This document shows positions 5,667 to 63,780 of a DNA stretch of 64,000 bases, piece by piece. Made by a program: the position numbers and the translations under genes. Source of the stretch: Candidatus Parcubacteria bacterium (GTDB lineage: Bacteria > Patescibacteriota > Minisyncoccia > Phycocordibacterales > JAKFXT01). Where the stretch lies: positions 342,157-406,156 of the forward strand of contig JAIOOV010000004.1 of the NCBI GenBank assembly GCA_021414235.1. Reading direction: 5' to 3'. Within the stretch, counting starts at the first letter, position 1. Every line of letters begins with the position of its first letter. A model generated the notes under the pieces. It had not been told where the DNA came from. It searched no databases and saw nothing but the letters and a program-made list of their open reading frames with translations.

Positions 5667-7250
5667 ATGTTTTGGGCTGATCGCATTGCGGAATCCATAG
5701 AGAAAGACAGAGCCAAGGATATTGCAGCCGGGCCTCTAGTCATTCGCGACGAGAAGACGGCTTCTGGCCGCGTGCATGTGGGCTCGATGCGCGGGGCGGC
5801 TATCCACGGACTCGTCTCCCAGGTGCTTGCGGATAAAGGGGTTGCTAATACTTTCTATTGGGAGATCAACGATTTCGATCCGATGGATGGTATGCCCGTG
5901 TATCTTGATGAAGCAGTGTATCGGCAATACATGGGTAAACCCCTTTACACTATTCCCTCGCCGGACGGTAAGGCCAAGAATTTTGCAGAATATTATGGCG
6001 AGGAGTTTGCGGGCGTGCTTAAGGATAGCGGCTTTTATCCTACCTACTATCGCGCGAGCGAGCTCTATCTCTCTGGTCGCATGAACGAGGCTATTAGGAT
6101 AGCCCTTGAGAAAGCGGAAGACATACGTCGTATCTATAAAGAGGTCTCGGGTTCAGAACGCGCCGATACTTGGCTTCCGCTCTCGGTTGTTTGTGAGAAG
6201 TGCGGCAAGATAGGCACTACGACTGCTGTTTCTTTTGACGGCGAGAAAGTGACCTATCGCTGTGAGGCGAAGAAGGTAGAGTGGGCGGAGGGCTGTAGTC
6301 ATGAGGGCAGCGTCTCGCCGTTTGATGGGCGTGCCAAGCTCCCGTGGAAAGTGGAGTGGGCTGCGAAGTTCAAGGTAATGAACGTCATGGTAGAGGGTGG
6401 AGGTAAAGACCACTCTACTAAGGGCGGAGCGCGCGATGTGGCCAATCGTATCTCCCGTGAAGTCTTTGGTTATGAGCCGCCCTTCGATATACCTTATGAA
6501 TTCTTCCTCATTGGCGGTAAGAAGATGTCTTCTTCCAAAGGAAGAGGCTCTTCTGCTCGTGAAGTAGCCGACCTTCTGCCACCGCACATCTTCCGTCTCG
6601 GGCTTTTGTCCAAGGATATCAATCAGGCAATCAATTTCGACCCAGAAGGGGATACTATTCCCGTACTCTTCGATCTCTATGACCGTTTGGCGGAGAAATA
6701 TTTTGTTGGCGAGACCGATGATCACGTGCGGATGCTCGTCCTTTCTCATAAGCCGGAGGATCAGAAAAGCATTCCTCGTCGCTTCTTGCCGCGCTTCTCG
6801 CTGATAGCTTTCCTCGTACAGATGCCTCACCTCGATCTCTTTGTCGAGGTGGAGAAGATGAAGGGAAGCCCTCTGACTCAAGAAGACAAGGAAGAAACTG
6901 AACTTCGGGCACTGTACGCCAAGAAGTGGCTCGAAGAGTGCGCTCCGGAAGATTTCAAGTATGAACTGGCCAAGGAGCTTCCCGAAGCAGCCAAGAGCCT
7001 CTCTCCCGAGCAGAAGAAAGCCGTTAAGGCCATCCTGGAGTATGTGGAAGCGAATCCGATCTTGGACGGCCAGCTGCTTCATACTGCCCTCCATGAGATG
7101 CGGAAGGCCCTCGGTATCGAGGCTGCGGACTTCTTCAGTGCCGTATATCTCTCTTTCCTAGGGAAGCCGAGCGGCCCTAAGGCGGGCTGGTTCCTCTCTG
7201 TATTGGAGAGGGAACTCCTCCTTTCCCGCCTCCGGGAAGCCTCCTCCTAG
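5667..7250 (+). CDS. lysS: Lysyl-tRNA synthetase, class I type
   Basis: HIGH-like HVGSMRG and KMSKS-like KMSSSKG motifs; overall class I LysRS layout (not the class II OB-fold plus motif 1-3 form). Confidence 0.8.
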   Translation: MFWADRIAESIEKDRAKDIAAGPLVIRDEKTASGRVHVGSMRGAAIHGLVSQVLADKGVANTFYWEINDFDPMDGMPVYLDEAVYRQYMGKPLYTIPSPDGKAKNFAEYYGEEFAGVLKDSGFYPTYYRASELYLSGRMNEAIRIALEKAEDIRRIYKEVSGSERADTWLPLSVVCEKCGKIGTTTAVSFDGEKVTYRCEAKKVEWAEGCSHEGSVSPFDGRAKLPWKVEWAAKFKVMNVMVEGGGKDHSTKGGARDVANRISREVFGYEPPFDIPYEFFLIGGKKMSSSKGRGSSAREVADLLPPHIFRLGLLSKDINQAINFDPEGDTIPVLFDLYDRLAEKYFVGETDDHVRMLVLSHKPEDQKSIPRRFLPRFSLIAFLVQMPHLDLFVEVEKMKGSPLTQEDKEETELRALYAKKWLEECAPEDFKYELAKELPEAAKSLSPEQKKAVKAILEYVEANPILDGQLLHTALHEMRKALGIEAADFFSAVYLSFLGKPSGPKAGWFLSVLERELLLSRLREASS

Positions 7251-39760: not shown

Positions 39761-40294
39761 TTATTTTTGAATTTTTTCTAAAACAAGCCGCAATTCCTCC
39801 TCAATCGTCATCGAAGTTGTATCCAGCACCAGATCAAAGTTCTTAGGATCAAGGAAGTTATCGATGTCGTAGTATTTTTTATAGCGGTCAGTGATAGTCT
39901 CTTCGCGGTGTCTGGTGCGCTCACGAGCTGTTTCTATGGAAATGCCTTCACGATGCGCCACGCGGGTCAGACGAACCTCTTCGTCACAGGTCATATTGAC
40001 CTTGAGTGAGTGCGGGATAAATTTCCAAGCCAAGCGGCCATCAATCACGAAGTCTTGTTCGGTCTGACCTAGCTTCTCAGTACGTTCGTCGAGTGCCCGG
40101 TCGAATTGAGGGTCATGTCTGGCAGCCTCATCGATCTCATTTATAGTCATACCACGTTCTTCGGCCATCTGACGGAGCAAGTCCCCTGCAGAATATTTCT
40201 TCCAGCCGAGCTCGTTCTGGATCGCTTTACAGAGGGCGCTTTTGCCGACGCCCGCGAGCCCGGCGATGGTGATGATTCGCTTATTCGGGTTCAT
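39761..40294 (-). CDS. P-loop nucleoside-monophosphate kinase of the cytidylate-kinase family
   Basis: IITIAGLAGVGKS Walker A at the N-terminus, DGRL motif, 177 aa. Overlaps the upstream HD gene by 14 nt. Confidence 0.65.
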   Translation of the reverse strand: MNPNKRIITIAGLAGVGKSALCKAIQNELGWKKYSAGDLLRQMAEERGMTINEIDEAARHDPQFDRALDERTEKLGQTEQDFVIDGRLAWKFIPHSLKVNMTCDEEVRLTRVAHREGISIETARERTRHREETITDRYKKYYDIDNFLDPKNFDLVLDTTSMTIEEELRLVLEKIQK

Positions 40295-52361: not shown

Positions 52362-53438
52362 CTAGATTCCCTCTTTGCGGAGCTCATTGAGAAGCTCTCG
52401 TGCTTTCTTCCCGAGCTTCCCAGGGAACGTGATGTTGATACGCACCAGGAGATCGCCACGGCGATTCTTCTCTACAGGTACTCCTTTGCCGCGTACGCGC
52501 AGAATCTCGCCGAAGGCTACGTTCTCGGGAATCTTGAGGGTAATGTCGCCGTCGAGAGTATGCACGGTGTAATCCGCACCAAGAAGTGCATCAGAGAGCT
52601 TCACGTTGAGGTCGGTAGTGAGGTTAGCTCCCTCCTTGCGCAGGAACGGATGGCGCTTCACATGTACTTTTACGTAGAGGTCGCCCGCAACTCCACCTGC
52701 GACTGCTTCACCCATGCCAGAGAGGCGGATCATTTCGCCATCATCAATGCCAGGAGGGACGCTGATGGTGATCTCTTCCTGGCGACGGACTACGCCTGCG
52801 CCATGACAGGAGGCGCACTTCTCTTTCGGTATCTTTCCAGAACCGCGGCAGGAATCGCAGGTGCGAGTGGTGCTAATGGAGCCGAAGAAGGAGCGACGTG
52901 TCTCGTGCACGCGTCCCTTGCCGTTACAAGAATCACACGTCTTCATCTCCGTGCCCGGCTTGCCGCCAGAGCCAGTACAGGTCTCACAGCGAGAAGTCTT
53001 GGTGATGAGCACCTTGCGCTCTGCACCGAAGACGGACTCCGCAAAGGTCAGCTCAATGTCTATGGAGATGTCGCGGCCGCGGGCTACGCGTCCTGCTCCT
53101 CCTCCGCCGAAGATGTCTCCGAAGATGTCTCCGATGTTGAAGTCCTCAAATCCTGCCTGTCCTCCGGTGAAGCCGGAGAAGTCGAAACCGCCCATATCTG
53201 GGCCCGCTCCCCCTCCACCATTCGCGCCACTAAAGACGCGGCCATAGGAATCGTATTCCGCACGCTTCTTGTCGTCCGAGAGCACGCTATACGCCTCGTT
53301 CACTTCCTTGAACTTGTTCGCATCCCCTCCCTTCTTGTCGGGATGGTACTTATGCGCCAACTTGCGGAAAGCCTTTTTGATGTCTTCTTTCGAAGCTCCT
53401 TTGGCGATTCCTAGTATGTCGTAGTAGTTCTTGGGCAT
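52362..53438 (-). CDS. dnaJ: Chaperone DnaJ
   Basis: J-domain HPD, G/F region, four CxxCxGxG repeats. Confidence 0.9.
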
Positions 53439-53495
53439 GAGAGGTGTCGTTTCTCCATACTAGCAGGGTCGCTGCTAGGGTTCAATCTTTTTGAT

Positions 53496-55400
53496 TTACG
53501 CCTTCGGCTCTTCTCCTCCTTCCTTGAAATCAGCGTCGCGTGGAGTGGGACCAGCTTCTCCTTCGGGAGCAGCTTCGCCACCCGCACTCTGTCCTCCGGG
53601 AGCTTTGCTCATAGCTTCACCCATCTTCTGAAGCTCCTGCGAGAGCGCCTCAGTGTCGCGCTTGATGGCGTCGGGATCAGTACCTTCTTTGGTTTTCTTG
53701 AGTTCTGTGATCTTACCCTCGATGGCGCTCTTCAGTTCTGCCGGAACCTTATCACCATTGTCGCGTAGTGACTTTTCTGCGGTGTAGATGAGCTGGTCAG
53801 CGAGGTTGCGGGCTTCTACGGACTGCTTCTTCTTCTCATCTTCTGATCCGTGTGCTTCCGCGTCCTTCTTCATGCGCTCAATTTCTTCGCTAGAGAGACC
53901 GGAGGAAGCTTCAATACGGATGGTCTGTTCCTTGCCGCTGGTCTTGTCCTTGGCCTTCACAGAGAGAATGCCGTTCGCATCTACGTCGAAGGTGACTTCC
54001 ACCTGAGGGAGTCCGCGCGGAGCGGGAGGGATGCCGTCGAGGATGAAGCGACCGAGGCTCTTGTTGTCCGCCGCCATGGCGCGCTCGCCCTGGACGATGT
54101 GGATCTCAACAGAGGTCTGGTTGTCCGCAGCAGTGGAGAAAGTCTGAGAGCGGGAGGTAGGCACGGTAGAGTTCTTCTCGATGAGCTTGGTGCCGACGCC
54201 GCCGAGGGTCTCGATACCGAGAGAGAGCGGGATGACGTCGAGGAGGAGCACGTCCTTCACGTCACCAGCGAGGATGCCGCCCTGGATGGCAGCGCCGAGC
54301 GCCACTACCTCATCCGGGTTCACGCCCATATGCGGCTTCTTGCCGAAGAATTCTTCCACCGCCTTTTGTATTGCGGGCATGCGAGTCTGGCCGCCCACGA
54401 GGATGACCTCGCTGATATCAGCGAGCTTGAAGGGAGAAGCATCCATGGCGCGCTTGGTGATGGCCATGGCGCGATCGATGAATTCCTTGGAGAGCTCTTC
54501 GAGCTTGGCGCGGGTCAGCTTCTTCACGAAGTGCTGAGGGCCGGCCTCCGTAGAGGTGATGAACGGGATGTTGATCTCCGACTCAAGTGCAGCAGAGAGT
54601 TCGATCTTGGCCTTCTCTGCGGCTTCGTCGAGACGCTGGCGTGCAAGAGGGTCGTTCCTCACGTCGATGCCGCTCTCTTTCTTAAACTCTTCTGCAAGCC
54701 AATTGATGACTACCTGGTCGATGTCCTTGCCGCCGAGGTGCGCATCGCCGTCGGTGCTCTTCACCTCCACCACGTCATCTCCCACTTCGAGCACGGATAC
54801 GTCGAAAGTACCACCACCGAAGTCGAAGACCGCGATTTTCTCTTCTTTCTTTTTGTTGAAGCCGTAGGCGAGCGCGGCCGCGGTCGGCTCGTTGATGATG
54901 CGGAGCACCTCAAGTCCTGCGATCTTGCCGGCGTCCTTAGTAGCCTGGCGCTGAGAGTCGTTGAAATATGCAGGAACGGTGATGATGGCCTGAGTGATGG
55001 TCTCCCCGAGGCGTGCCTCTGCATCCGTCTTCAGTTTCTGCAGGATCATGGCAGAGATCTCTTCCGGACGATTCCAGTTCTCTCCCATCTTCACTTCGAT
55101 GCCGCCGTTTGTGGACTTACGCATCTCGAAAGGCACAGCTTCTCTGTCCTTGCCGACTGCTGGTTCGTCAAAATTGTGTCCGATGAAGCGCTTGATCTGG
55201 TAGATCGTGTTCTTGGGATTGGTCACTCCCTGGCGCTTGGCGAGGAGGCCGACGAGGCGCTCTCCGGTCTTTGATACCGCGACGACGGAGGGCGTGGTAC
55301 GTGCGCCTTCCGCATTCTCGATGATCTTGGGTGCGCCCACTTCGATGACTGCCATCGCGGAGTTGGTGGTGCCGAGGTCGATGCCGAGTATTTTTGCCAT
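53496..55400 (-). CDS. dnaK: Chaperone DnaK (Hsp70)
   Basis: [16 protein letters not shown] and other Hsp70 signatures; 634 aa. Confidence 0.95.
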
Positions 55401-55426
55401 ATGGACGAGTGATTAATTGTTAAAAG

Positions 55427-56002
55427 CTATTTTGTTTCCGTAATATATACCTTCACCTGTGCCGGCCTCAAGACCTTGCCGTTAAGCGTGTAGCCTCGCT
55501 GCAGGACTTGGGCGACGGTGTGATCCCCTTCTCCGTTCTCTGCAGGAACTTCAGCTACCGCTGCATGCTCTCGAGGGTCGAAAGGCTTGCCTTTAGGATC
55601 AAGCGCCTTGAGGCCGTGTGACTCGAGGATCCCAAGGAGCTGGGAGCGCACGTACTCCATGCCCTTGCGCCACTCCGGAGGAAGCGCTTCCCAGGAGGCG
55701 GAGTTCGCCGTCGCCATATCGAAGCTATCAAGCACCGGGATCAGTTCCTCGAGGAGATTCTCCTCGGCGAACTTGATGAAGCGCTCCTTCTCTTCCTTCT
55801 CGAGCTTCTTGCTGTTGGCGAATTCCGCCTTGATGCGCTGCCAGCCGTCGAGATATTCCTGCTTCTCAGCAACGCAGGTGGCGAGCTTCTCGCGAAGCTT
55901 CTTCATCTGCTCAGCTGGGGAGGTAAGCTCCGAGTCTTCCTCGAAGGTCACATCGTCTTTCTCTTTTTCAAATTCTGTGTCTGCCATAGGGGATAAGCTC
56001 AC
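55427..56002 (-). CDS. grpE: Nucleotide exchange factor GrpE
   Basis: Acidic N-terminus, coiled coil, C-terminal GrpE beta-domain; the gene lies immediately before dnaK in the minus-strand operon. Confidence 0.85.
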   Translation of the reverse strand: MSLSPMADTEFEKEKDDVTFEEDSELTSPAEQMKKLREKLATCVAEKQEYLDGWQRIKAEFANSKKLEKEEKERFIKFAEENLLEELIPVLDSFDMATANSASWEALPPEWRKGMEYVRSQLLGILESHGLKALDPKGKPFDPREHAAVAEVPAENGEGDHTVAQVLQRGYTLNGKVLRPAQVKVYITETK

Positions 56003-56058
56003 TATACATCAGATAGCGCGGAGCGGAAGAAAATCGGAGAGACAGAGGAGAGGAGAAA

Positions 56059-56463
56059 CTAGCGCTTCGCCCACTGAGCGGCTTTACGAGCCTTCTTGAG
56101 ACCGAACTTGCGGCGCTCCTTCATGCGCGGATCACGCTTGAGATAACCCTGCTTCTTGAGCGGGCTGCGGAGATCACGATCCCCTTCTACGAGTGCGCGG
56201 CTGATGGCGTGGCGGACTGCCACTGCCTGGGAGGAGACACCACCACCCATGACGCGAACGGTCACCTTGAACTTGGAGGTCGTTTCGGTGAGGTTAAGCG
56301 CAGAGAGTACGGTAGCTCTGAGGTCTTCGGTCTTGAAATATTCCTCGAGCGGCTGGTCGTTCACAGTGAAGGACTGCTTGCCGGATTCTTCGAGGCGCGC
56401 GCGAGCGACAGACGTCTTACGGCGTCCGACAGTCTCGATATATGCCTGTTTGGTCTTATCCAT
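56059..56463 (-). CDS. rpsI: 30S ribosomal protein S9
   Basis: C-terminal GLKKARKAAQWAKR. Confidence 0.9.
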   Translation of the reverse strand: MDKTKQAYIETVGRRKTSVARARLEESGKQSFTVNDQPLEEYFKTEDLRATVLSALNLTETTSKFKVTVRVMGGGVSSQAVAVRHAISRALVEGDRDLRSPLKKQGYLKRDPRMKERRKFGLKKARKAAQWAKR

Positions 56464-56468
56464 AAATA

Positions 56469-56822
56469 TTATTCAGTGACGATGAGATTCTTGAACATGC
56501 GGGAGCGGAGCTTGTTCTTGGGAAGCATGCCCCAGACTGCGTGGCGGATGAGCTCGCCGTAGCCCTTCTTCTCCATGACGGCTTTGCCGGTCTGCACGGT
56601 GCGGCCTCCTGGGTAACCAGAGTAGCGCTGGTGGCTGACCTCCATGAGGCGGCGCTCGTCGATAGAGAGCTTAGCAGCATTCTCCACCTTCACCTTCACG
56701 AGCGCGGTCGCGTTCCTGACGAAATCAGGGGTGCCCTTGCCGATGAGGAGCTTAGCCGCCTCGCTTGCGAGTCGTCCGAGCTTCTTCCCTTCCGCATTAA
56801 GTGTGTATTCCTTGGAGGTCAT
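56469..56822 (-). CDS. rplM: 50S ribosomal protein L13
   Basis: Recognised as L13 from the overall sequence pattern; 117 aa; adjacent to rpsI. Confidence 0.85.
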   Translation of the reverse strand: MTSKEYTLNAEGKKLGRLASEAAKLLIGKGTPDFVRNATALVKVKVENAAKLSIDERRLMEVSHQRYSGYPGGRTVQTGKAVMEKKGYGELIRHAVWGMLPKNKLRSRMFKNLIVTE

Positions 56823-56831
56823 ATAGGTATC

Positions 56832-57185
56832 TTAGACGAAGGATATCTGGGCCATCTTGCTCGAGTCCGAGAGGCGGCGCGGGAGCTTGGTGATGCGGGT
56901 GTAGCCGCCCTGGCGATCCATGTAGCGAGGCGCGATCTCCTTGAGGAGCATCTTAGCCTCGGCCTCGCCGCCGATGCGGGAGATGAGGAGGCGCTCCACG
57001 GCGAGTCCGCCCTTCTTGCTGTGAGTCACCATCCGCTCGATGAACGGGCGGAGTTCCTTGGCCTTGGCCTCGGTCGTCTTGATCTTGCCATGAAGCACGA
57101 GAGAACGCGAAAGGCTCTTCAAGAGGGCCTGCCTCTCAGAGCTGCTCTTCCGTCCTAGCCCGCGTCCTTTCTTGTGGTGCTTCAT
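56832..57185 (-). CDS. rplQ: 50S ribosomal protein L17
   Basis: MKHHKKGRGLGRKSS..TRI; follows rpoA. Confidence 0.9.
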   Translation of the reverse strand: MKHHKKGRGLGRKSSSERQALLKSLSRSLVLHGKIKTTEAKAKELRPFIERMVTHSKKGGLAVERLLISRIGGEAEAKMLLKEIAPRYMDRQGGYTRITKLPRRLSDSSKMAQISFV

Positions 57186-57203
57186 AAAGGATTACTTACA
57201 GGA

Positions 57204-58166
57204 TTATTTGAGGGTGATGCCGTAGTTAGAGAGCATGCGCTTGATCTCCTGGATGCCCTTGGAGCCCAATCCATCGATATCGAGGATGTCCTCTTCCTTC
57301 TTGCGGACGAGGCCACCCACGGTGCGGATGTTGGCTTCGGTGAGGGCATTCACGGTGCGCTGGGAGAGGTCGAGAGTGTCGATGCGGGTCTTGAGGATCT
57401 CTGCGTCGATCTCCGGGCGTACGCGCTCCTCCTTGGAAGACTCGGTCTCAGTCTCTGGGCGGAGCTCCTCTTCCTCTTTGAAGCCGACGATGGCACGGAG
57501 CTGGTTGATCATGATCTCGATGGACTGCTCGAGGGCCTGGTGCGGAGTGACGGTGCCGTCGGTCTCGATGAAGACCTTGAGGCGGTTGAAGTCAGTACGA
57601 TCACCGACGCGCATGTTCTCCACCTCGTAGTTCACGCGGCGGATAGGAGTGAAGATCGCGTCGAGAGTGATGGTGCCGATGTCCACCTTCTCCTTCTGGA
57701 GGACTTCCTTAGCGACGAAGCCCAAGCCGCGCTCGACTTTGAGTTCCATGTTGAGTTCGGTGCCCTTCTCGGTGGTGTGCGCGATGACGAGCTCAGGATT
57801 GAGCACTTCTACCTGACCAGGGACAGTGAGATCGCCTGCAGTGACTTCCTTAGCACCCTTGATGGAGAGAGAAAGCGTCTGGGGCTCATCCGTGAGCATC
57901 TTGATGCGGATGCGCTTGAGGTTGATGAGGAGAGTGACCACGTCCTCCTTTACGCCAGGGATGGTGGAGAACTCGTGGCTGACGCCTTCGATCTTGACCT
58001 CTGTGATGGCAGCACCCGGGAGGGAGGAAAGGATGATGCGGCGGAGGGAGTTACCCAAAGTGTGGCCGTAGCCAGGGTAAAGGCCGTCGATCTCGTACGA
58101 GCCGCTCCACTCTTGTTCCGAAACGATCCTGGGCTTCGACGGAAGCACGATGTTGTGGGCTGTCAT
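57204..58166 (-). CDS. rpoA: DNA-directed RNA polymerase subunit alpha
   Basis: N-terminal dimerisation domain plus C-terminal domain, 320 aa; located between rpsD and rplQ. Confidence 0.9.
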   Translation of the reverse strand: MTAHNIVLPSKPRIVSEQEWSGSYEIDGLYPGYGHTLGNSLRRIILSSLPGAAITEVKIEGVSHEFSTIPGVKEDVVTLLINLKRIRIKMLTDEPQTLSLSIKGAKEVTAGDLTVPGQVEVLNPELVIAHTTEKGTELNMELKVERGLGFVAKEVLQKEKVDIGTITLDAIFTPIRRVNYEVENMRVGDRTDFNRLKVFIETDGTVTPHQALEQSIEIMINQLRAIVGFKEEEELRPETETESSKEERVRPEIDAEILKTRIDTLDLSQRTVNALTEANIRTVGGLVRKKEEDILDIDGLGSKGIQEIKRMLSNYGITLK

Positions 58167-58231
58167 GATGAGTTTCTTAAAAATGAGTAATCTTTATACG
58201 ATAAAAATATACTTTTCGCAATATCCCACGT

Positions 58232-58846
58232 TTAGCGGGTGTAGAACTCAAGCACCTGCGGCAGGTCGAACGGCTGCACCGCTGCGTCCATGCGCGGGGC
58301 TCCGGCCACCTTACCCTCGCCCTTCTCCGGGTCGAAGGAGAGCCAGGAAGGATTCTTCATGTCCTTGAGGCGTCCGACGAGGTCGGTGAAGAGGGCGCTG
58401 TTCTTGCTGCCCTCGCGAATAGCGAAGACGTCGCCCTGAGACATCTGATAGGAAGGAATGGTTACCTTGCGGCCGCCGATGACGATGTGGCCATGAGAGA
58501 CCATCTGGCGGGCGCTACGGCGGCTCGAGGTGAGGCCGAGGCGGTAGACCACGTTGTCGAGGCGACGCTCGAGGAGCGCGAAGAGGGCAGCAGCCTGGTT
58601 CTCTCCCCCATGGCTCACTGCTGCGCGGATGTAATTGCGGAACTGGCGCTCAGTGATGCCGTAGGTCATGCGCACCTTCTGCTTCTCCAAGAACTGCTTG
58701 GCGTAGTCGGACTTGGCTCCGCCACGGCGCTTGCCGCGCTTCATCTCCGTACGTGCGAGCGAGAGCTGGAACTTCTGCGTCTGGGTCTTATCGAAGACCT
58801 GTGCGCCGAGGCGTTTCGCTATTTTGTATCTAGGGCCGATTTTCAT
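58232..58846 (-). CDS. rpsD: 30S ribosomal protein S4
   Basis: MKIGPRYKIAKRLG.., S4 RNA-binding domain, 204 aa. Confidence 0.9.
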   Translation of the reverse strand: MKIGPRYKIAKRLGAQVFDKTQTQKFQLSLARTEMKRGKRRGGAKSDYAKQFLEKQKVRMTYGITERQFRNYIRAAVSHGGENQAAALFALLERRLDNVVYRLGLTSSRRSARQMVSHGHIVIGGRKVTIPSYQMSQGDVFAIREGSKNSALFTDLVGRLKDMKNPSWLSFDPEKGEGKVAGAPRMDAAVQPFDLPQVLEFYTR

Positions 58847-58855
58847 ATGGAATAT

Positions 58856-59290
58856 TTAGACGCGACGAGGCTTAGGAGGCTTGGGACCATTGTGCGGCAC
58901 CGGGGTCGCATCCCTGATGGAGGCGACAGCGACTCCTTTAGAGGAAAAGCCGCGGATGGCAGACTCGCGGCCTGCGCCGACGCCCTTCACGACTACATCT
59001 ACTTCGCGCACGCCCATGGCGTTAGCTTTCTCCCCGAGAAGCTCGCCTACCTTAGCGGCTGCGAACGGTGTGCCCTTCTTGGCGCCAGCAAAGCCGAGTG
59101 CGCCAGAAGAGGAAGCCATGAGGGCGTTGCCTTCGCGGTCGGTGAGGAGCACCTGCGTGTTGTTGTACGTGGCCTGGACGAAGAGGATGCCAGCATCCAC
59201 CTTCTTGCGGGCGGCTTTCTGGAGAGACTTGCTGCGCAAGCCCTGATCCACTTCCCCGCCGCTCTTTTTAACTACTCGTTTCTTACCCAT
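58856..59290 (-). CDS. rpsK: 30S ribosomal protein S11
   Basis: Recognised as S11 from the overall sequence pattern; 144 aa; lies between rpsM and rpsD. Confidence 0.85.
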   Translation of the reverse strand: MGKKRVVKKSGGEVDQGLRSKSLQKAARKKVDAGILFVQATYNNTQVLLTDREGNALMASSSGALGFAGAKKGTPFAAAKVGELLGEKANAMGVREVDVVVKGVGAGRESAIRGFSSKGVAVASIRDATPVPHNGPKPPKPRRV

Positions 59291-59307
59291 ATAAATATTG
59301 AATCGGT

Positions 59308-59688
59308 TTAGGTCTTCTCTACCTTACGGCGACCCGAGCCCATGGTCTTGCGGACGTTGCCACGGAGCGTGCGGGAGTTGGTCTTGGTGCGCTGTCCGCG
59401 GGCCGGGAGCCTGCGAGCGTGGCGGTTGCCGCGGTAGGACTTGATATCTTTGAGGCGCTTGATGTTGGCGCCGACGATGCGCTTGAGGTCTCCTTCGATC
59501 TTGAAGCCTTCGACGATGGCGCGGATGCGGTTCTCCTGCTCCGGAGTGAGCTCCTTACCCTTCACGCTCGGCTCCACCTTGGCCTCCTTGAGGATGGTGA
59601 GGGCGCGCGGGCGTCCGATGCCGAAGAGGACCGTGAGGCCGATCTCGATACGCTTCTCTTCAGGAATATTGATACCGCTGATACGCAT
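59308..59688 (-). CDS. rpsM: 30S ribosomal protein S13
   Basis: MRISGINIP..; 126 aa. Confidence 0.9.
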   Translation of the reverse strand: MRISGINIPEEKRIEIGLTVLFGIGRPRALTILKEAKVEPSVKGKELTPEQENRIRAIVEGFKIEGDLKRIVGANIKRLKDIKSYRGNRHARRLPARGQRTKTNSRTLRGNVRKTMGSGRRKVEKT

Positions 59689-59690
59689 GA

Positions 59691-59804
59691 TTATTTCTGG
59701 CGCTGTTTATGCTTAGGGTTGCTGCAGATAACATGCATGCGCCCCTTACGACGGAGCGCTTTGCAGTTGGCACAGATTGTCTTGATGGATGCGCGGACTT
59801 TCAT
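59691..59804 (-). CDS. rpmJ: 50S ribosomal protein L36
   Basis: Hand translation of the minus strand gives [37 protein letters not shown] (37 aa). Too short to appear in the ORF track. Confidence 0.8.
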
Positions 59805-59807
59805 GGT

Positions 59808-60020
59808 TTACATTCTGCGGACGATTCTTCCTTTCCCGCCGTACGGCTCGAGTTCTACCTCGACCGTGTCTCCGACGAGCACTCGGATGCGGTGGAACCG
59901 CATCTTCCCGGCAAGGTACGTCAAGAGCTCCTTGTCAGTCTCTTTGAGAACGACCCGGAAAAGGGTGTTCGGCAGAGCCTCAACCACGGTGCCTAAATGA
60001 CGTATATTTGAAGTTTCCAT
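59808..60020 (-). CDS. infA: Translation initiation factor IF-1
   Basis: [41 protein letters not shown]1-like fold, 70 aa. Confidence 0.9.
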
Positions 60021-60105
60021 CAGCGGACAGAATGAAGAGTAGCCTATCAGATAGGGCTACAAGCGTCAACGGGAGCCCTGGGGACTCCTGTTGACCTTGG
60101 GGCTG

Positions 60106-61500
60106 TTATTTCTCCTTAAGGACTATCTGGATCTGAGAAGCCTTCTCCGGGAGGGCACTCTTCCAGAATGGCTGTACTACCACCGAGCTCCTATCCATTG
60201 GGTAGGCCTGGAGTACAGAGGTTACCTCTTTCTTAGGTACTCCGGCAAGGGATTCCTTGAGCTTTTCCGTATCTATGGCCCAGGTAAGGGTCGTTTCGCC
60301 CTTCAGGCTGAAGGTGATGCTGTCCGATTCCCACGGCTTACCCCCACTCTGAGGCTTGAAAGCCAGGGCCCGAAGGCTCTCTCCGCCGGTCAGTTCTTCT
60401 CCGTGGTAGTCGCCGGAAGCTAACTTGCGGTAGGCCAGGAACTGGGAGAGCTTGCCTTCCGCAAAGATGATGCCGTAGAGGGTGACACGCTGCTTGACCT
60501 CGCTTGCCTCTGGATTGGAGAGTGTCTCGGTCTCGGTGTAGATCGCATCCTTGTAGAGCACGTAGCCCTCAGGCTTCTGCTCATTGGCCTGCCGCATGAG
60601 GCTTTCGGTGAGTTCCGTGGTCAGGGCAGCCTTAGCCTGCTCGATATCGGAGGCGGAAGCGGTCTTTACGGTGCCGCTGAATCCGCCGGTCATGGCCGTC
60701 TTGCCACGGGCATAGAATTTGCTGTAGCGCGGATCTCCCTTGAAGCCAGGTATGGTGAAATCAGTAAGCCCGATGTTGTAGCTCTCCCCTGCCTGGTCGG
60801 CGATGACCTCTGCTTCTATGGTGCCCGGTGTGGTTCCCTTCTTGCCGGGGATGGTGATGGGAGAGGCGATGCGGTAGACCTTGCCGTCTGCGGTTTCAAA
60901 ACGGGTGGTGGCAACCAGGCGCTGTGTCGCCGAGCTGTAGTCGTTGTAGATGATGATGGTGCCGCGTGCCTTCTCGCTTATGGTCTTAGTGCCTGTCTCA
61001 GGGACGGTCTTCGAAGACTCCTCGGAGAGCTTCATTAGTTCGAACTGGAGCCCTTCAGGACCTGCTTCCTTCTCCGCCGTAATCATCTCATCTACAGAGA
61101 CGATGGAGACCTTGGGCACGATGCTGACGGTAGCTTTCGGCAGGAAGAACTTACCCGCGAAAAGAAGAACGCCTGCGAGCGCCAATCCGCCTATTACCAA
61201 TGCGATCTTCCCGAAATGAACGTGGGGTGGCCAGAATCTTCCCATAAATGAATCGTTAAGAGGTTGTCCCTTGCTACCGTACGCAAACACCTTCGGCCGG
61301 GGCGGAGGTGGGGGCGGAGGAGTTTCCCTTCTCGAGGGTGGAGCAACATCGCTACGCATCTCCCGAGTCTCTTTCGGCGCAGCGTGGTGATGAGTTTCAG
61401 GACGCACACTCTCGGATTTGGGGTGACGATGGTCGGGTATTGGAATATCGCGGATCGTCTTCTTGGGGGGTACTACGTCCTGAAAAGAATCCTTGGGCAT
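60106..61500 (-). CDS. Bitopic membrane protein with a Pro-rich cytoplasmic N-terminus and a large extracytoplasmic domain
   Basis: PPPPPPP tract, one TM (KIALVIGGLALAGVLLFAG), about 360 extracytoplasmic residues; no recognised domain. Confidence 0.5.
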   Translation of the reverse strand: MPKDSFQDVVPPKKTIRDIPIPDHRHPKSESVRPETHHHAAPKETREMRSDVAPPSRRETPPPPPPPRPKVFAYGSKGQPLNDSFMGRFWPPHVHFGKIALVIGGLALAGVLLFAGKFFLPKATVSIVPKVSIVSVDEMITAEKEAGPEGLQFELMKLSEESSKTVPETGTKTISEKARGTIIIYNDYSSATQRLVATTRFETADGKVYRIASPITIPGKKGTTPGTIEAEVIADQAGESYNIGLTDFTIPGFKGDPRYSKFYARGKTAMTGGFSGTVKTASASDIEQAKAALTTELTESLMRQANEQKPEGYVLYKDAIYTETETLSNPEASEVKQRVTLYGIIFAEGKLSQFLAYRKLASGDYHGEELTGGESLRALAFKPQSGGKPWESDSITFSLKGETTLTWAIDTEKLKESLAGVPKKEVTSVLQAYPMDRSSVVVQPFWKSALPEKASQIQIVLKEK

Positions 61501-61530
61501 ATCAAATAATATGGGCGAAATTAGATGAGC

Positions 61531-62694
61531 TCATGATACCACGGAGGCTTCTCGCAGAGTCTCCGAGCTTGTGGATAGGAGGAAGGGAGAACGCTGCGTG
61601 TGCGCGAAGAGTGCGGCGATAGCGAGCGTGGCGCTACCAAGATCCCCTGGGAGTGCGACACTGCGCGAGAGAGTGACTCCGGTAAGAGGGATCACCGGAA
61701 GCCCCCGACGGCCTCCCCGGTGATATGTGAAGCTCCCCCGGATGAGCGCTTCGAGCGGATGCAATATCTCGGGGGGAGCAAGGAGCACCACACTCTCCGG
61801 CCGCGGAGAGCGCTCTGTGATCATCTCGGAGGCCTTCTCGAAGAGTGAGACCCACTCCTTACCAGCGAGGCGAAGCAGATCCACAGAGAGCGCGGCGTGC
61901 CCTTTATGGGAGAGGCGGATCTTGTCGCGCATCACCTCTACGGTCGTATGCAAGCTGCGGCTGATCGCCGTGAAGAGATCCTGCGCCCCTATGGGAAAAG
62001 ATGCCGATTCGAGGAGCATCCCTTCTTCGAAATGAAGGAGCTCAGTGGCACGCCCGCTCATATGCACCGAGAGATGCGTCCCTTTGTCGAGTGCGGGCAT
62101 GGCGGTACGCAGACTCACCGAGAGCGCGAGGGAAAGCGGCTCTACGAGCACCGGCAGATGGAAAAAGCGCAGGATCTCGCTCTCGATGAGTCGGGCGGTT
62201 TCCCGCTCCAGAGCACTTTTCAATACAAAAAGCTCCAACGTACGTCCGAACAGTCCGTAGGGCTCCAGGGTGCGGTAGCCATTCACTACGGTGCCGATGA
62301 GATGCGAACCCTCGCTCTCCCCTCCTCCGCGCTTGAAATGCGCTTCGAGGAGCTTTTGCACGAGGGCAGGCGTCACTTTGAAATCTGAGGTCTCCTCGTA
62401 GCGGATGATCTCGGTGGATGCGCGATATGAAGGGGAACTGACCAGTACCACCGCCTCTTTGGGGAGCGGCAGGCCATGAGCATGGATGTCACGGGAGAGT
62501 GCTTCAAGCGCGGAACGCAGGCCCATGCGGAGCGGGCGTCTCTCTGTAGAGAGCGTACTCGCAGCCATAGCCGGGATGTGCACCTTGTCGCCGTGCGCGA
62601 GCGCAAGCGCTGCCTCCACGCTGCCTGAAGGAGCGTCTACGGTGAGGACGAGCTTAGGATGCGAATGAAAAGTTGAACGAGAGAACAGTCCCAT
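61531..62694 (-). CDS. Hypothetical protein, possibly a degenerate actin-fold (ASKHA) ATPase-like protein
   Basis: N-terminal LVLTVDAPSGSV resembles a phosphate-1 loop; LSVHMSGRATELLHF is a weak phosphate-2-like motif. Otherwise unassigned. Confidence 0.4.
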   Translation of the reverse strand: MGLFSRSTFHSHPKLVLTVDAPSGSVEAALALAHGDKVHIPAMAASTLSTERRPLRMGLRSALEALSRDIHAHGLPLPKEAVVLVSSPSYRASTEIIRYEETSDFKVTPALVQKLLEAHFKRGGGESEGSHLIGTVVNGYRTLEPYGLFGRTLELFVLKSALERETARLIESEILRFFHLPVLVEPLSLALSVSLRTAMPALDKGTHLSVHMSGRATELLHFEEGMLLESASFPIGAQDLFTAISRSLHTTVEVMRDKIRLSHKGHAALSVDLLRLAGKEWVSLFEKASEMITERSPRPESVVLLAPPEILHPLEALIRGSFTYHRGGRRGLPVIPLTGVTLSRSVALPGDLGSATLAIAALFAHTQRSPFLLSTSSETLREASVVS

Positions 62695-62736
62695 CGCTAA
62701 AAGTATACCGCAGGCACCCTCTTCTCTAAAGGGAGA

Positions 62737-63780
62737 TTATCCAATACGCGAAGATTCGGAGTAGATAGAGAGGAGTGCGAAGAGGAAACTCACCGAGAGC
62801 GGGCCCAAGAAGATACCGATGGGGCCGAAGAGCGCGAGTGCGCCGAGCACAGAAAGAAGGACGAGAAGCGGATGGAGGCTCATTCCTCTACCTACGAGCT
62901 TGGGACCAAGGAGGTTGTCGATGAGACCGACAGCAAGAGAACCCCATAACAGAAGTCCGAGGGCTGGGAGGCTGCCCACCGCGAAGAAAAGATAGATGAT
63001 CGCGGGTATGAATATGAGCGCGGTGCCGATGCTCGGTACGAGTGCCGCAAGAGCGGTGAGCGCTCCCCAGAGGATGGCGCTGGGGACACCGAAGAGGGTG
63101 AAGCCAATAGCAGCAAGGGTTCCTTGAATGAGCGCTATGAGCAGATTCCCCCTCACCACCGAGTTCACTGCCAGTCCGAGGCGATTAAAGACCTCCTCGT
63201 CGTCCTTGTCGTTAAGCGGGGAGAGATCCACCAAGACACGCTTCAGCTTACGGCCGTCACGCAGGAAGTAATACAGAGAGAGCAGGAAGAGGAAGGTTGC
63301 GAGGAGAAGAGAGGCTACGCTAGAGAAAGCACTGCCCGCATGGCTGATGATCCAGGTAAGGCTCGTGCGCACGTAAGTGTCGATGTTGGCGGCAAGCTTT
63401 GCTGCGAGCCCCTCTGTGCCGGGAATGAAATTACCAACCGCGCTTTCAATGTGCGTCAGGATCTCCATGAGGTGAGTCTCCCCTGCGCCATACTCTATAG
63501 AGAGATACAGGTCGCGAGCCTCGTTCCCTACCAGAGTCACCAGGAGCGAGAGTGGGATGAGCACTACCACTAAGCTGAGAAGGACGGTAAGTACAGCAGC
63601 CAAGCTGGGCCAGTCCCCCAGGCGCACGCGGATCCGGCCATAGAGCGGGTAGAGCACTACGGAGAAGACTGCTGCCAGGATGAGCGGAGGAAGGAACGGC
63701 AGGAAGATGAGACCTACCAAGAAAAAGACTCCTAAAAGGAGGAGTATCAGGAAGTATGGACGTAGTTGTTCACGGTTCAT
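62737..63780 (-). CDS. AI-2E family transporter (PerM/UPF0118)
   Basis: 8 TM helices, 347 aa, characteristic family topology. Confidence 0.8.
   Translation of the reverse strand: MNREQLRPYFLILLLLGVFFLVGLIFLPFLPPLILAAVFSVVLYPLYGRIRVRLGDWPSLAAVLTVLLSLVVVLIPLSLLVTLVGNEARDLYLSIEYGAGETHLMEILTHIESAVGNFIPGTEGLAAKLAANIDTYVRTSLTWIISHAGSAFSSVASLLLATFLFLLSLYYFLRDGRKLKRVLVDLSPLNDKDDEEVFNRLGLAVNSVVRGNLLIALIQGTLAAIGFTLFGVPSAILWGALTALAALVPSIGTALIFIPAIIYLFFAVGSLPALGLLLWGSLAVGLIDNLLGPKLVGRGMSLHPLLVLLSVLGALALFGPIGIFLGPLSVSFLFALLSIYSESSRIG

Follow-up and report, generated by a model that had tools for sequence, protein, structure and literature searches.

A conserved gene pair upstream of infA in Parcubacteria encodes an FtsA/PilM-class actin-fold protein and a membrane-anchored relative of baseplate protein J

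Which genes stand ahead of infA when the familiar order of the ribosomal clusters is broken, and what do they encode? The question is raised by a stretch of 64,000 nucleotides, hereafter the window, from Candidatus Parcubacteria bacterium (assembly GCA_021414235.1, contig JAIOOV010000004.1, positions 342,157 to 406,156). The canonical Bacillus-type spc-alpha string contains the order rplO-secY-adk-map-infA-rpmJ-rpsM. In the window the block infA-rpmJ-rpsM-rpsK-rpsD-rpoA-rplQ is intact but cut from rplO-secY-adk-map, and infA is preceded instead by two genes, here called A and B, which code for proteins of 387 and 464 amino acids.

Gene order around A and B in Parcubacteria

Read 5' to 3' along the minus strand, the open reading frames (ORFs) of the region and their Pfam matches give the order AI-2E transporter, A, B, infA, rpmJ, rpsM, rpsK, rpsD, rpoA, rplQ, rplM, rpsI, grpE, dnaK, dnaJ, with gaps of 42 nucleotides between transporter and A, 30 between A and B and 85 between B and infA. 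A sequence-only reading of this DNA had described an intact rpsI-rplM and rplQ-rpoA-rpsD-rpsK-rpsM-rpmJ-infA string, headed by a 464-residue bitopic protein with a polyproline run and a 387-residue protein where secY, adk and map were expected, and the ORFs are exactly as it described them. Pfam scans of essentially all long ORFs, together with tblastn searches with the Escherichia coli proteins, detected no SecY, canonical adenylate kinase, Map or L15 in the window, and none of the four turns up in the 10 kb past the window end in another assembly of this genome (L085). The accompanying statement that these three genes are almost universally found upstream of infA was too strong: in E. coli, rpmJ-rpsM come straight after secY, this junction contains neither adk nor map nor infA, and adk and map lie at distant loci.

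The arrangement was followed in 80 species-level genomes chosen as carrying a homologue of B and in four further loci that were looked up, giving 84 loci in all. Kaiser-, Taylor-, Zambryski-, Campbell- and Wolfebacteria (Parcubacteria/Paceibacteria) are among the lineages represented. A homologue of A of about 400 amino acids lies directly upstream of B in 69 of the 80 species, mostly across gaps of less than 110 nucleotides, and infA is found within 500 nucleotides downstream of B in 66. The usual order is alaS-A-B-infA (48 of 84 loci); A-B-infA with alaS out of reach accounts for a further nine. Twelve loci display alaS-A-B without infA within 500 nucleotides. In two of these infA follows at 0.8–1.8 kb, and in seven at least 2.9 kb of downstream sequence contains neither infA nor rpsM; PCMT, UDG, lysS and mraZ-mraW are the genes encountered downstream in the sampled loci of this type. 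Two loci harbour A-B with neither alaS nor infA detected. The remaining 13 loci, corresponding to 11 species (L019, L033-L035, L041, L045, L063, L073, L077, L080 and L081), are organized as alaS-B-infA and lack A, with alaS abutting B across 13–287 nucleotides. A low-GC clade without A shows a feature of its own: the interval of about 1.1 kb between alaS and B (L003 6856-8000, with an equivalent in L004) is non-coding, contains no ORF of 80 amino acids or more, and is filled with hairpins and dense short direct repeats, for example runs of AAAGTCCATAAAGTC and GACTTTCGACTTT.

SecY, Adk, Map and L15 gave no match across the 1.07 Mb of these loci. The sister genome L088, whose B is 81% identical to that of the window, has the identical order LexA-PIF1-AI2E-A-B-infA, and in this sub-lineage the AI-2E transporter, PIF1 helicase and LexA genes have come to sit between alaS and A-B (L085, L088). 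Adjacency of A and B outlasts rearrangement on both sides, as insertions separate alaS from A in some genomes and infA is missing downstream in others.

A and B thus form a module of two genes that is confined to Parcubacteria (class Paceibacteria) and inherited at a fixed place, alaS-A-B-infA. As the A-B-infA order is lineage-wide and the loci have no SecY, Adk, Map or L15, the alpha-type block was split from the spc cluster early in the class, and alaS-A-B has stood upstream of infA ever since. The operon oddity is an ordinary lineage-specific rearrangement. Of the two explanations originally offered, a rearranged cluster agrees with the order seen across Parcubacteria species, where no secY, adk or map lies near; the insertion of novel genes into the operon is wrong, the same arrangement being found throughout the lineage, and the description of the two genes as unrelated gives way to a conserved pair. 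A recent insertion or mobile element is ruled out by this synteny and by base composition, since neither GC content nor skew shows a break within the region or at its flanks. Of what the sequence-only reading had named as refuting it, one half is present: the arrangement recurs in related genomes, but none of them supplies an annotated function, and the two genes received no confident mundane assignment.

Folds and architecture of the two proteins

Word-index searches recovered six close relatives of A, and the proteins encoded upstream of B in other genomes are 18–27% identical to it. The family is nonetheless large: a profile of A run against 1.84 billion representatives matched 2,818 clusters at E ≤1e-3 and 2,129 at E ≤1e-10, and among the best 150 matches listed nearly all are about 400 amino acids long. 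Homologues of B number at least 686, all of them in Patescibacteria and all labelled hypothetical. The ratio of non-synonymous to synonymous substitution rates (dN/dS) relative to the sister genome is approximately 0.07 for both A and B, as it is for rpoA and infA, and about 0.05–0.07 for A in the clade of the window, the values being approximate because dS is saturated. Homologues and dN/dS together rule out that either gene is a chance ORF or a pseudogene.

Within the actin fold (ASKHA), A falls into the FtsA/PilM sub-branch, the one distinguished by a 1C insertion, and it is a member of neither named family. The placement follows from profile matches among the sequences of the Protein Data Bank (PDB) to PilM (3jc8, E 7.6e-5) and FtsA (1e4f, E 1.2e-3); from PF14450, which matches 27 of 54 family members but also matches MreB and so does not discriminate; and from hhalign comparisons, in which E. 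coli FtsA reaches 91.5% probability over 240 columns including the 1C region against 2.7% for the MreB encoded in the window itself. E. coli HofM scores 0.3%, but HofM is a poor stand-in for PilM, so that profiles cannot rank the affinity of A to FtsA and PilM. The predicted model shows the two-lobed actin fold with PilM and FtsA as nearest structural relatives, and a 1C (SHS2) insertion replaces subdomain 1B. The columns most conserved in the family are P88, N138-G139-Y140, F233-P234-x-G236, W281 and P299; in the model, which is of low confidence, P88 marks the start of the 1C insertion and the NGY motif lies within it. The earlier suggestion of a PilM-like protein or division ATPase therefore holds at the level of the fold, where structural and profile comparisons both rank PilM and FtsA highest, but fails at the level of the named families. 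No Pfam or NCBIfam family matches A at threshold: its TIGR01175 score of 16.5 bits falls far below the cut-off of 133, and PF11104 (PilM) matches one of 54 family members. The A-B neighbourhoods examined contain no pilO, pilB, pilC or pilin gene.

The affinity to FtsA raises the question of whether A is simply the highly divergent divisome actin of this lineage, with B as a division-specific bitopic partner and functional analogue of FtsN or FtsQ. This appears unlikely. PilM scores at least as well as FtsA, the PF14450 match is shared with MreB as noted, and A attains only about 14–15 bits with TIGR01174 (ftsA), whose cut-off is 175.85. FtsA carries a C-terminal amphipathic membrane anchor, whereas sequences of the A family terminate directly behind the last core helix and have neither a linker nor an amphipathic membrane-targeting helix. 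In none of the loci examined is A-B accompanied by ftsZ or dcw genes, the neighbours being alaS, B and infA, and eleven species have B with no A beside it.

A further departure from FtsA concerns the phosphate loops. Across the family the relevant residues are largely retained (D20 in 52 of 65 sequences, G22 in 58, D211 in 56, E215 in 57 and T/S217 in all 65). In contrast, the clade of the window, comprising four sequences at 64–80% identity (window, L086, L087 and L088), has undergone the changes G22P, W89S, D211H, E215R, D307P and D354S, and its phosphate-1 and phosphate-2 segments, VDAPSG and VHMSGRATE, depart from the canonical loops (DxG[ST] for phosphate-1, DxGGxT[DE]-like for phosphate-2) at P22, H211 and R215. 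The weak phosphate loops reported in the sequence-only reading are thus correct for this clade. The degeneration is real and clade-specific and suggests a scaffold role; judged from sequence, the window clade looks like a pseudo-ATPase sub-lineage under purifying selection.

For B, the GenBank record adopts a start that yields 379 amino acids and drops the first 85 residues. As the additional N-terminus carries a motif kept in homologues at 35–45% identity, the 464-residue start is, by sequence conservation, the correct one. Residues 1–95 form a variable, basic (16 K+R) and proline-rich cytoplasmic tail with a run of seven prolines at residues 61–67. Near its beginning lies the conserved linear motif (Table 1), in which D8 and [VI]9 are present in all 38 homologues aligned, I16 in 34 and P11 and P12 in 32 each, and which is also seen across the 84 loci. 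The single hydropathy peak coincides with a helix in the predicted model. Hydropathy, alignment and model concur on a bitopic protein with its N-terminus inside the cell and a short conserved cytoplasmic motif, the topology of PilN and PilO.

The ectodomain, residues 119–464, is modelled with a predicted local distance difference test score (pLDDT) mostly above 90, and conservation in the 38-sequence alignment is densest at residues 180–276. Foldseek comparison with viral models returned baseplate J-like proteins at a probability of about 1.0 over 340–400 columns. Sequence profiles give fainter echoes: PHROG 6 ('baseplate wedge subunit') gives a weak hit to the barrel over about 70 residues (177–247, E 4e-5 to 2e-3), and PF04865 (baseplate J) finds one of the 38 family members at E 0.005, below Pfam thresholds. 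The beta-barrel family PF21110, named for GlxA, matches 35 of the 38 at E ≤0.1 (best 1e-6); the B of the window reaches 15.8 bits where the cut-off is 27, and some homologues carry a precomputed PF21110 label. In the GlxA radical copper oxidase of Streptomyces (PDB 4unm), with which B was aligned, the barrel is alike, but B has no copper-oxidase propeller domain. None of the structural matches of B has the PilN/PilO fold, a periplasmic coiled coil with a ferredoxin-like domain. The proposed resemblance to PilN or PilO accordingly stands for the topology, bitopic with a conserved N-terminal tail inside, and falls for the ectodomain.

The fold is shared with the baseplate wedge J family (Mu gp47, P2 gpJ, the C-terminal part of T4 gp6; PF04865, PHROG 6), and it could be asked whether A-B is what is left of a prophage, tailocin or other mobile element stranded upstream of infA. 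The structural match and the weak PHROG 6 hit speak for such an origin. It is effectively refuted by the setting: B is a cellular, single-copy gene of housekeeping type with no other phage, tail or baseplate genes around it, its composition is continuous with the flanks, it holds the same position in dozens of species at 35–45% identity, its dN/dS resembles that of housekeeping genes, its membrane anchor and cytoplasmic tail are absent from phage wedge proteins, and no defence system is matched. A defence role for the pair was rejected likewise, PADLOC giving no match. Anchored in the membrane and encoded in a cellular genome, B is related to baseplate protein J but lies outside the phage family by sequence and context, and an ectodomain of baseplate-J/GlxA type is unprecedented for the bitopic partner of a PilM/FtsA-type protein.

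A possible docking partnership

What might the two proteins do together? The well-studied members of the FtsA/PilM sub-branch all work on the cytoplasmic side of the membrane, where they grip a short N-terminal tail of a bitopic protein. For PilM this is the N-terminal peptide of PilN (PDB 2ych, 5eou), and FtsA binds the cytoplasmic tail of the bitopic FtsN. A has no membrane anchor, B is bitopic with a conserved N-terminal motif, and their adjacency is kept through rearrangements; for these reasons A is proposed to dock where the N-terminal tail of B emerges on the cytoplasmic side of the membrane, in the style of PilM-PilN or FtsA-FtsN. Docking would couple a cytoplasmic scaffold to an extracellular structural domain. 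This outer part is read as a domesticated relative of the phage or tailocin baseplate wedge protein J (gp47/gp6), with a barrel that Streptomyces GlxA shares, and probably oligomerises, as baseplate wedge proteins are oligomerising structural units. In the window clade, which has lost the conserved phosphate-loop residues, A would most likely serve as a nucleotide-independent scaffold. The process served may be a housekeeping one in the cell envelope, such as division, wall growth or formation of a surface structure.

Comparison with the PilM-PilN systems of Thermus thermophilus (2ych), Pseudomonas aeruginosa (5eou) and Myxococcus (3jc8) marks the extent of the analogy. The motif of PilN is INLLP, from which the QDVxPP..RSIRDIP of B differs, and a multi-domain ectodomain of baseplate-J/GlxA type takes the place of the coiled-coil and ferredoxin-like architecture of PilN and PilO.

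Several observations weigh against docking, foremost among them the alaS-B-infA order without A nearby in 11 of 80 species, where the motif of B is fully intact. The A gene of those genomes may lie at another locus, or else the motif is independent of an adjacent A or serves another partner. Conversely, some genomes that contain A retain just the QD[IV] core of the motif. Scores from an ungapped position-specific scoring matrix show the motif fully kept in the clade without A; elsewhere indels spoil the scores. The GG adenosine motif is absent throughout the A family, a difference from PilM as well. The model of A is of low confidence (pLDDT 61.9, from a 10-sequence alignment), which makes residue-level statements on the groove between 1A and 1C weak. 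A conserved position beside ribosomal genes says nothing about function, and no functional hint for A or B was found in papers or curated families.

The first of these observations lends some credit to a view in which A and B are independent and are neighbours through inherited gene order, B being a stand-alone surface protein for host attachment or cell-wall binding and A having an unrelated cytoplasmic role. The species with alaS-B-infA and an unchanged B, N-terminal motif included, agree with it, and gene order in the region is generally frozen (alaS, the ribosomal block, grpE-dnaK-dnaJ), so that adjacency alone is weak evidence of a shared function. However, the survival of A-B adjacency through rearrangements on either side and the short gaps between the genes are harder to reconcile with independence, and A has no route of its own to the membrane while its nearest structural relatives all hold the tails of bitopic proteins. 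Independence seems somewhat improbable.

Taken as a whole, the docking proposal, in which A on the tail of B links a scaffold to an outer module in a housekeeping envelope process, is a tentative one whose prospects fall a little short of even; the statements on fold and synteny are held with much more confidence. A bolder extension envisages domesticated baseplate-wedge proteins that would form a ring or platform on the outer face of the membrane, organised from inside by rings or filaments of A. This would amount to an unrecognised Parcubacteria-specific envelope-spanning machine, for instance the base of an attachment or uptake organelle in an episymbiotic lifestyle, or a stand-in for missing divisome parts. 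Such a machine is speculative and distinctly unlikely.

The surrounding region and the place of the pair in Parcubacteria

The features of the locus are collected in Table 1.

Table 1. Coordinates of genes, protein segments and non-coding elements in the A-B region of the window
Feature	Position	Strand	Description
AI-2E family transporter	62737-63780	-	Pfam 1.4e-52
Promoter-like TTTAGA-17-TATACT	62702-62730	-	Transporter-A gap; weak consensus match alone, at least as frequent in shuffled sequence
Gene A	61531-62694	-	387 aa; locus tag K8Q93_03195; cytoplasmic FtsA/PilM-class actin-fold (ASKHA) protein
Gene B	60106-61500	-	464 aa; locus tag K8Q93_03190; bitopic, N-terminus inside, baseplate-J/GlxA-like ectodomain
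B N-terminal linear motif, aa 6-22	61435-61485	-	[FIL]-Q-D-[VI]-x-P-P-[KR]-[RK]-[ST]-I-R-D-I-P-x-P; candidate docking peptide
B transmembrane helix, aa 96-118	61147-61215	-	Sole hydropathy peak; helix in predicted model
B ectodomain, most conserved part, aa 177-280	60661-60972	-	Baseplate-J/GlxA-type beta-barrel; motifs TRFET..G..YR and DFTIPGFKG
B-infA spacer	60021-60105	-	Two stable hairpins, fold z-score -3.35
infA (IF1)	59808-60020	-	Pfam eIF-1a 4.8e-19; first gene of the ribosomal alpha-type block after A-B
rpmJ	59691-59804	-	ORF
rpmJ-rpsM-rpsK-rpsD-rpoA-rplQ-rplM-rpsI	56059-59804	-	ORFs; block intact; relatives with the same order by Pfam labels

The spacer between B and infA is conserved to an unusual degree at its end: the last 59 aligned positions, which extend over the opening codons of infA, share 93% identity with the sister genome (L088 11384-11470) despite saturated dS in the coding regions. 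This stretch overlaps a hairpin and includes, just upstream of infA, the promoter-like pair TTGACG-17-TAGGCT. It is likely to represent a promoter or leader of infA itself, or another regulatory element. Since a promoter or leader of its own probably serves infA, A-B need not be transcribed together with the ribosomal block. Rfam detected no RNA family in the region; the only two tRNAs lie elsewhere.

In the second assembly, the 10 kb upstream of A harbour pepF, a prephenate dehydratase gene, a small RpoA-CTD-like ORF, alaS and genes for a 2OG-Fe oxygenase, LexA, PIF1 helicase and the AI-2E transporter. The small ORF (L085 1509-1931, about 8 kb beyond the window end) is a stand-alone frame of 140 amino acids that matches only the C-terminal domain (CTD) of the RNA polymerase alpha subunit (PF03118). 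It immediately precedes alaS and overlaps the start of that gene; the window carries the full-length rpoA. On the other side of the block, rplQ is followed directly by rplM-rpsI and then by grpE-dnaK-dnaJ (window 52362-57185, minus strand), a second fused arrangement that is kept in L001, L003 and L088.

Two further genes of the window are worth recording. The only nucleoside-monophosphate-kinase-like gene (39761-40294, minus strand) encodes a cytidylate-kinase-like protein of 177 amino acids, which matches ADK marginally (29.0 bits against a cut-off of 26.8) and was missed by tblastn with E. coli Adk. Class I lysyl-tRNA synthetase (PF01921) is encoded at 5667-7250 on the plus strand and also in L024 (9293-10882), hence in at least two of these Parcubacteria genomes; this enzyme is typical of archaea and occurs in a minority of bacteria.

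The families of A and B are undescribed in Pfam, NCBIfam (as such), PHROGs, PADLOC and the literature searched, where nothing relevant was found on the A-B pair, on membrane-anchored baseplate-J proteins in bacteria of the candidate phyla radiation (CPR) or on a link between GlxA and baseplates. Parcubacteria/Paceibacteria are among the most abundant uncultivated bacteria. A large part of their conserved core is made up of membrane proteins of unknown function (PMC6744442), and A and B are probably among the Parcubacteria-enriched hypothetical membrane-associated families of that study.

The A-B pair is fixed in the core genome of the whole class. The rearrangement of the operon is a lineage marker of modest interest, and the alaS-A-B-infA junction could serve as a synteny signature of the class. 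Two near-universal core families acquire a structural identity and are revealed as a fixed pair. A concrete hypothesis that can be tested also emerges, namely that an actin-fold protein clamps the tail of a membrane protein whose outer part presents a module like those of phage baseplates. Were this borne out, the docking principle of PilM/FtsA would have found a new use, and the baseplate wedge fold would have been recruited to a housekeeping role.

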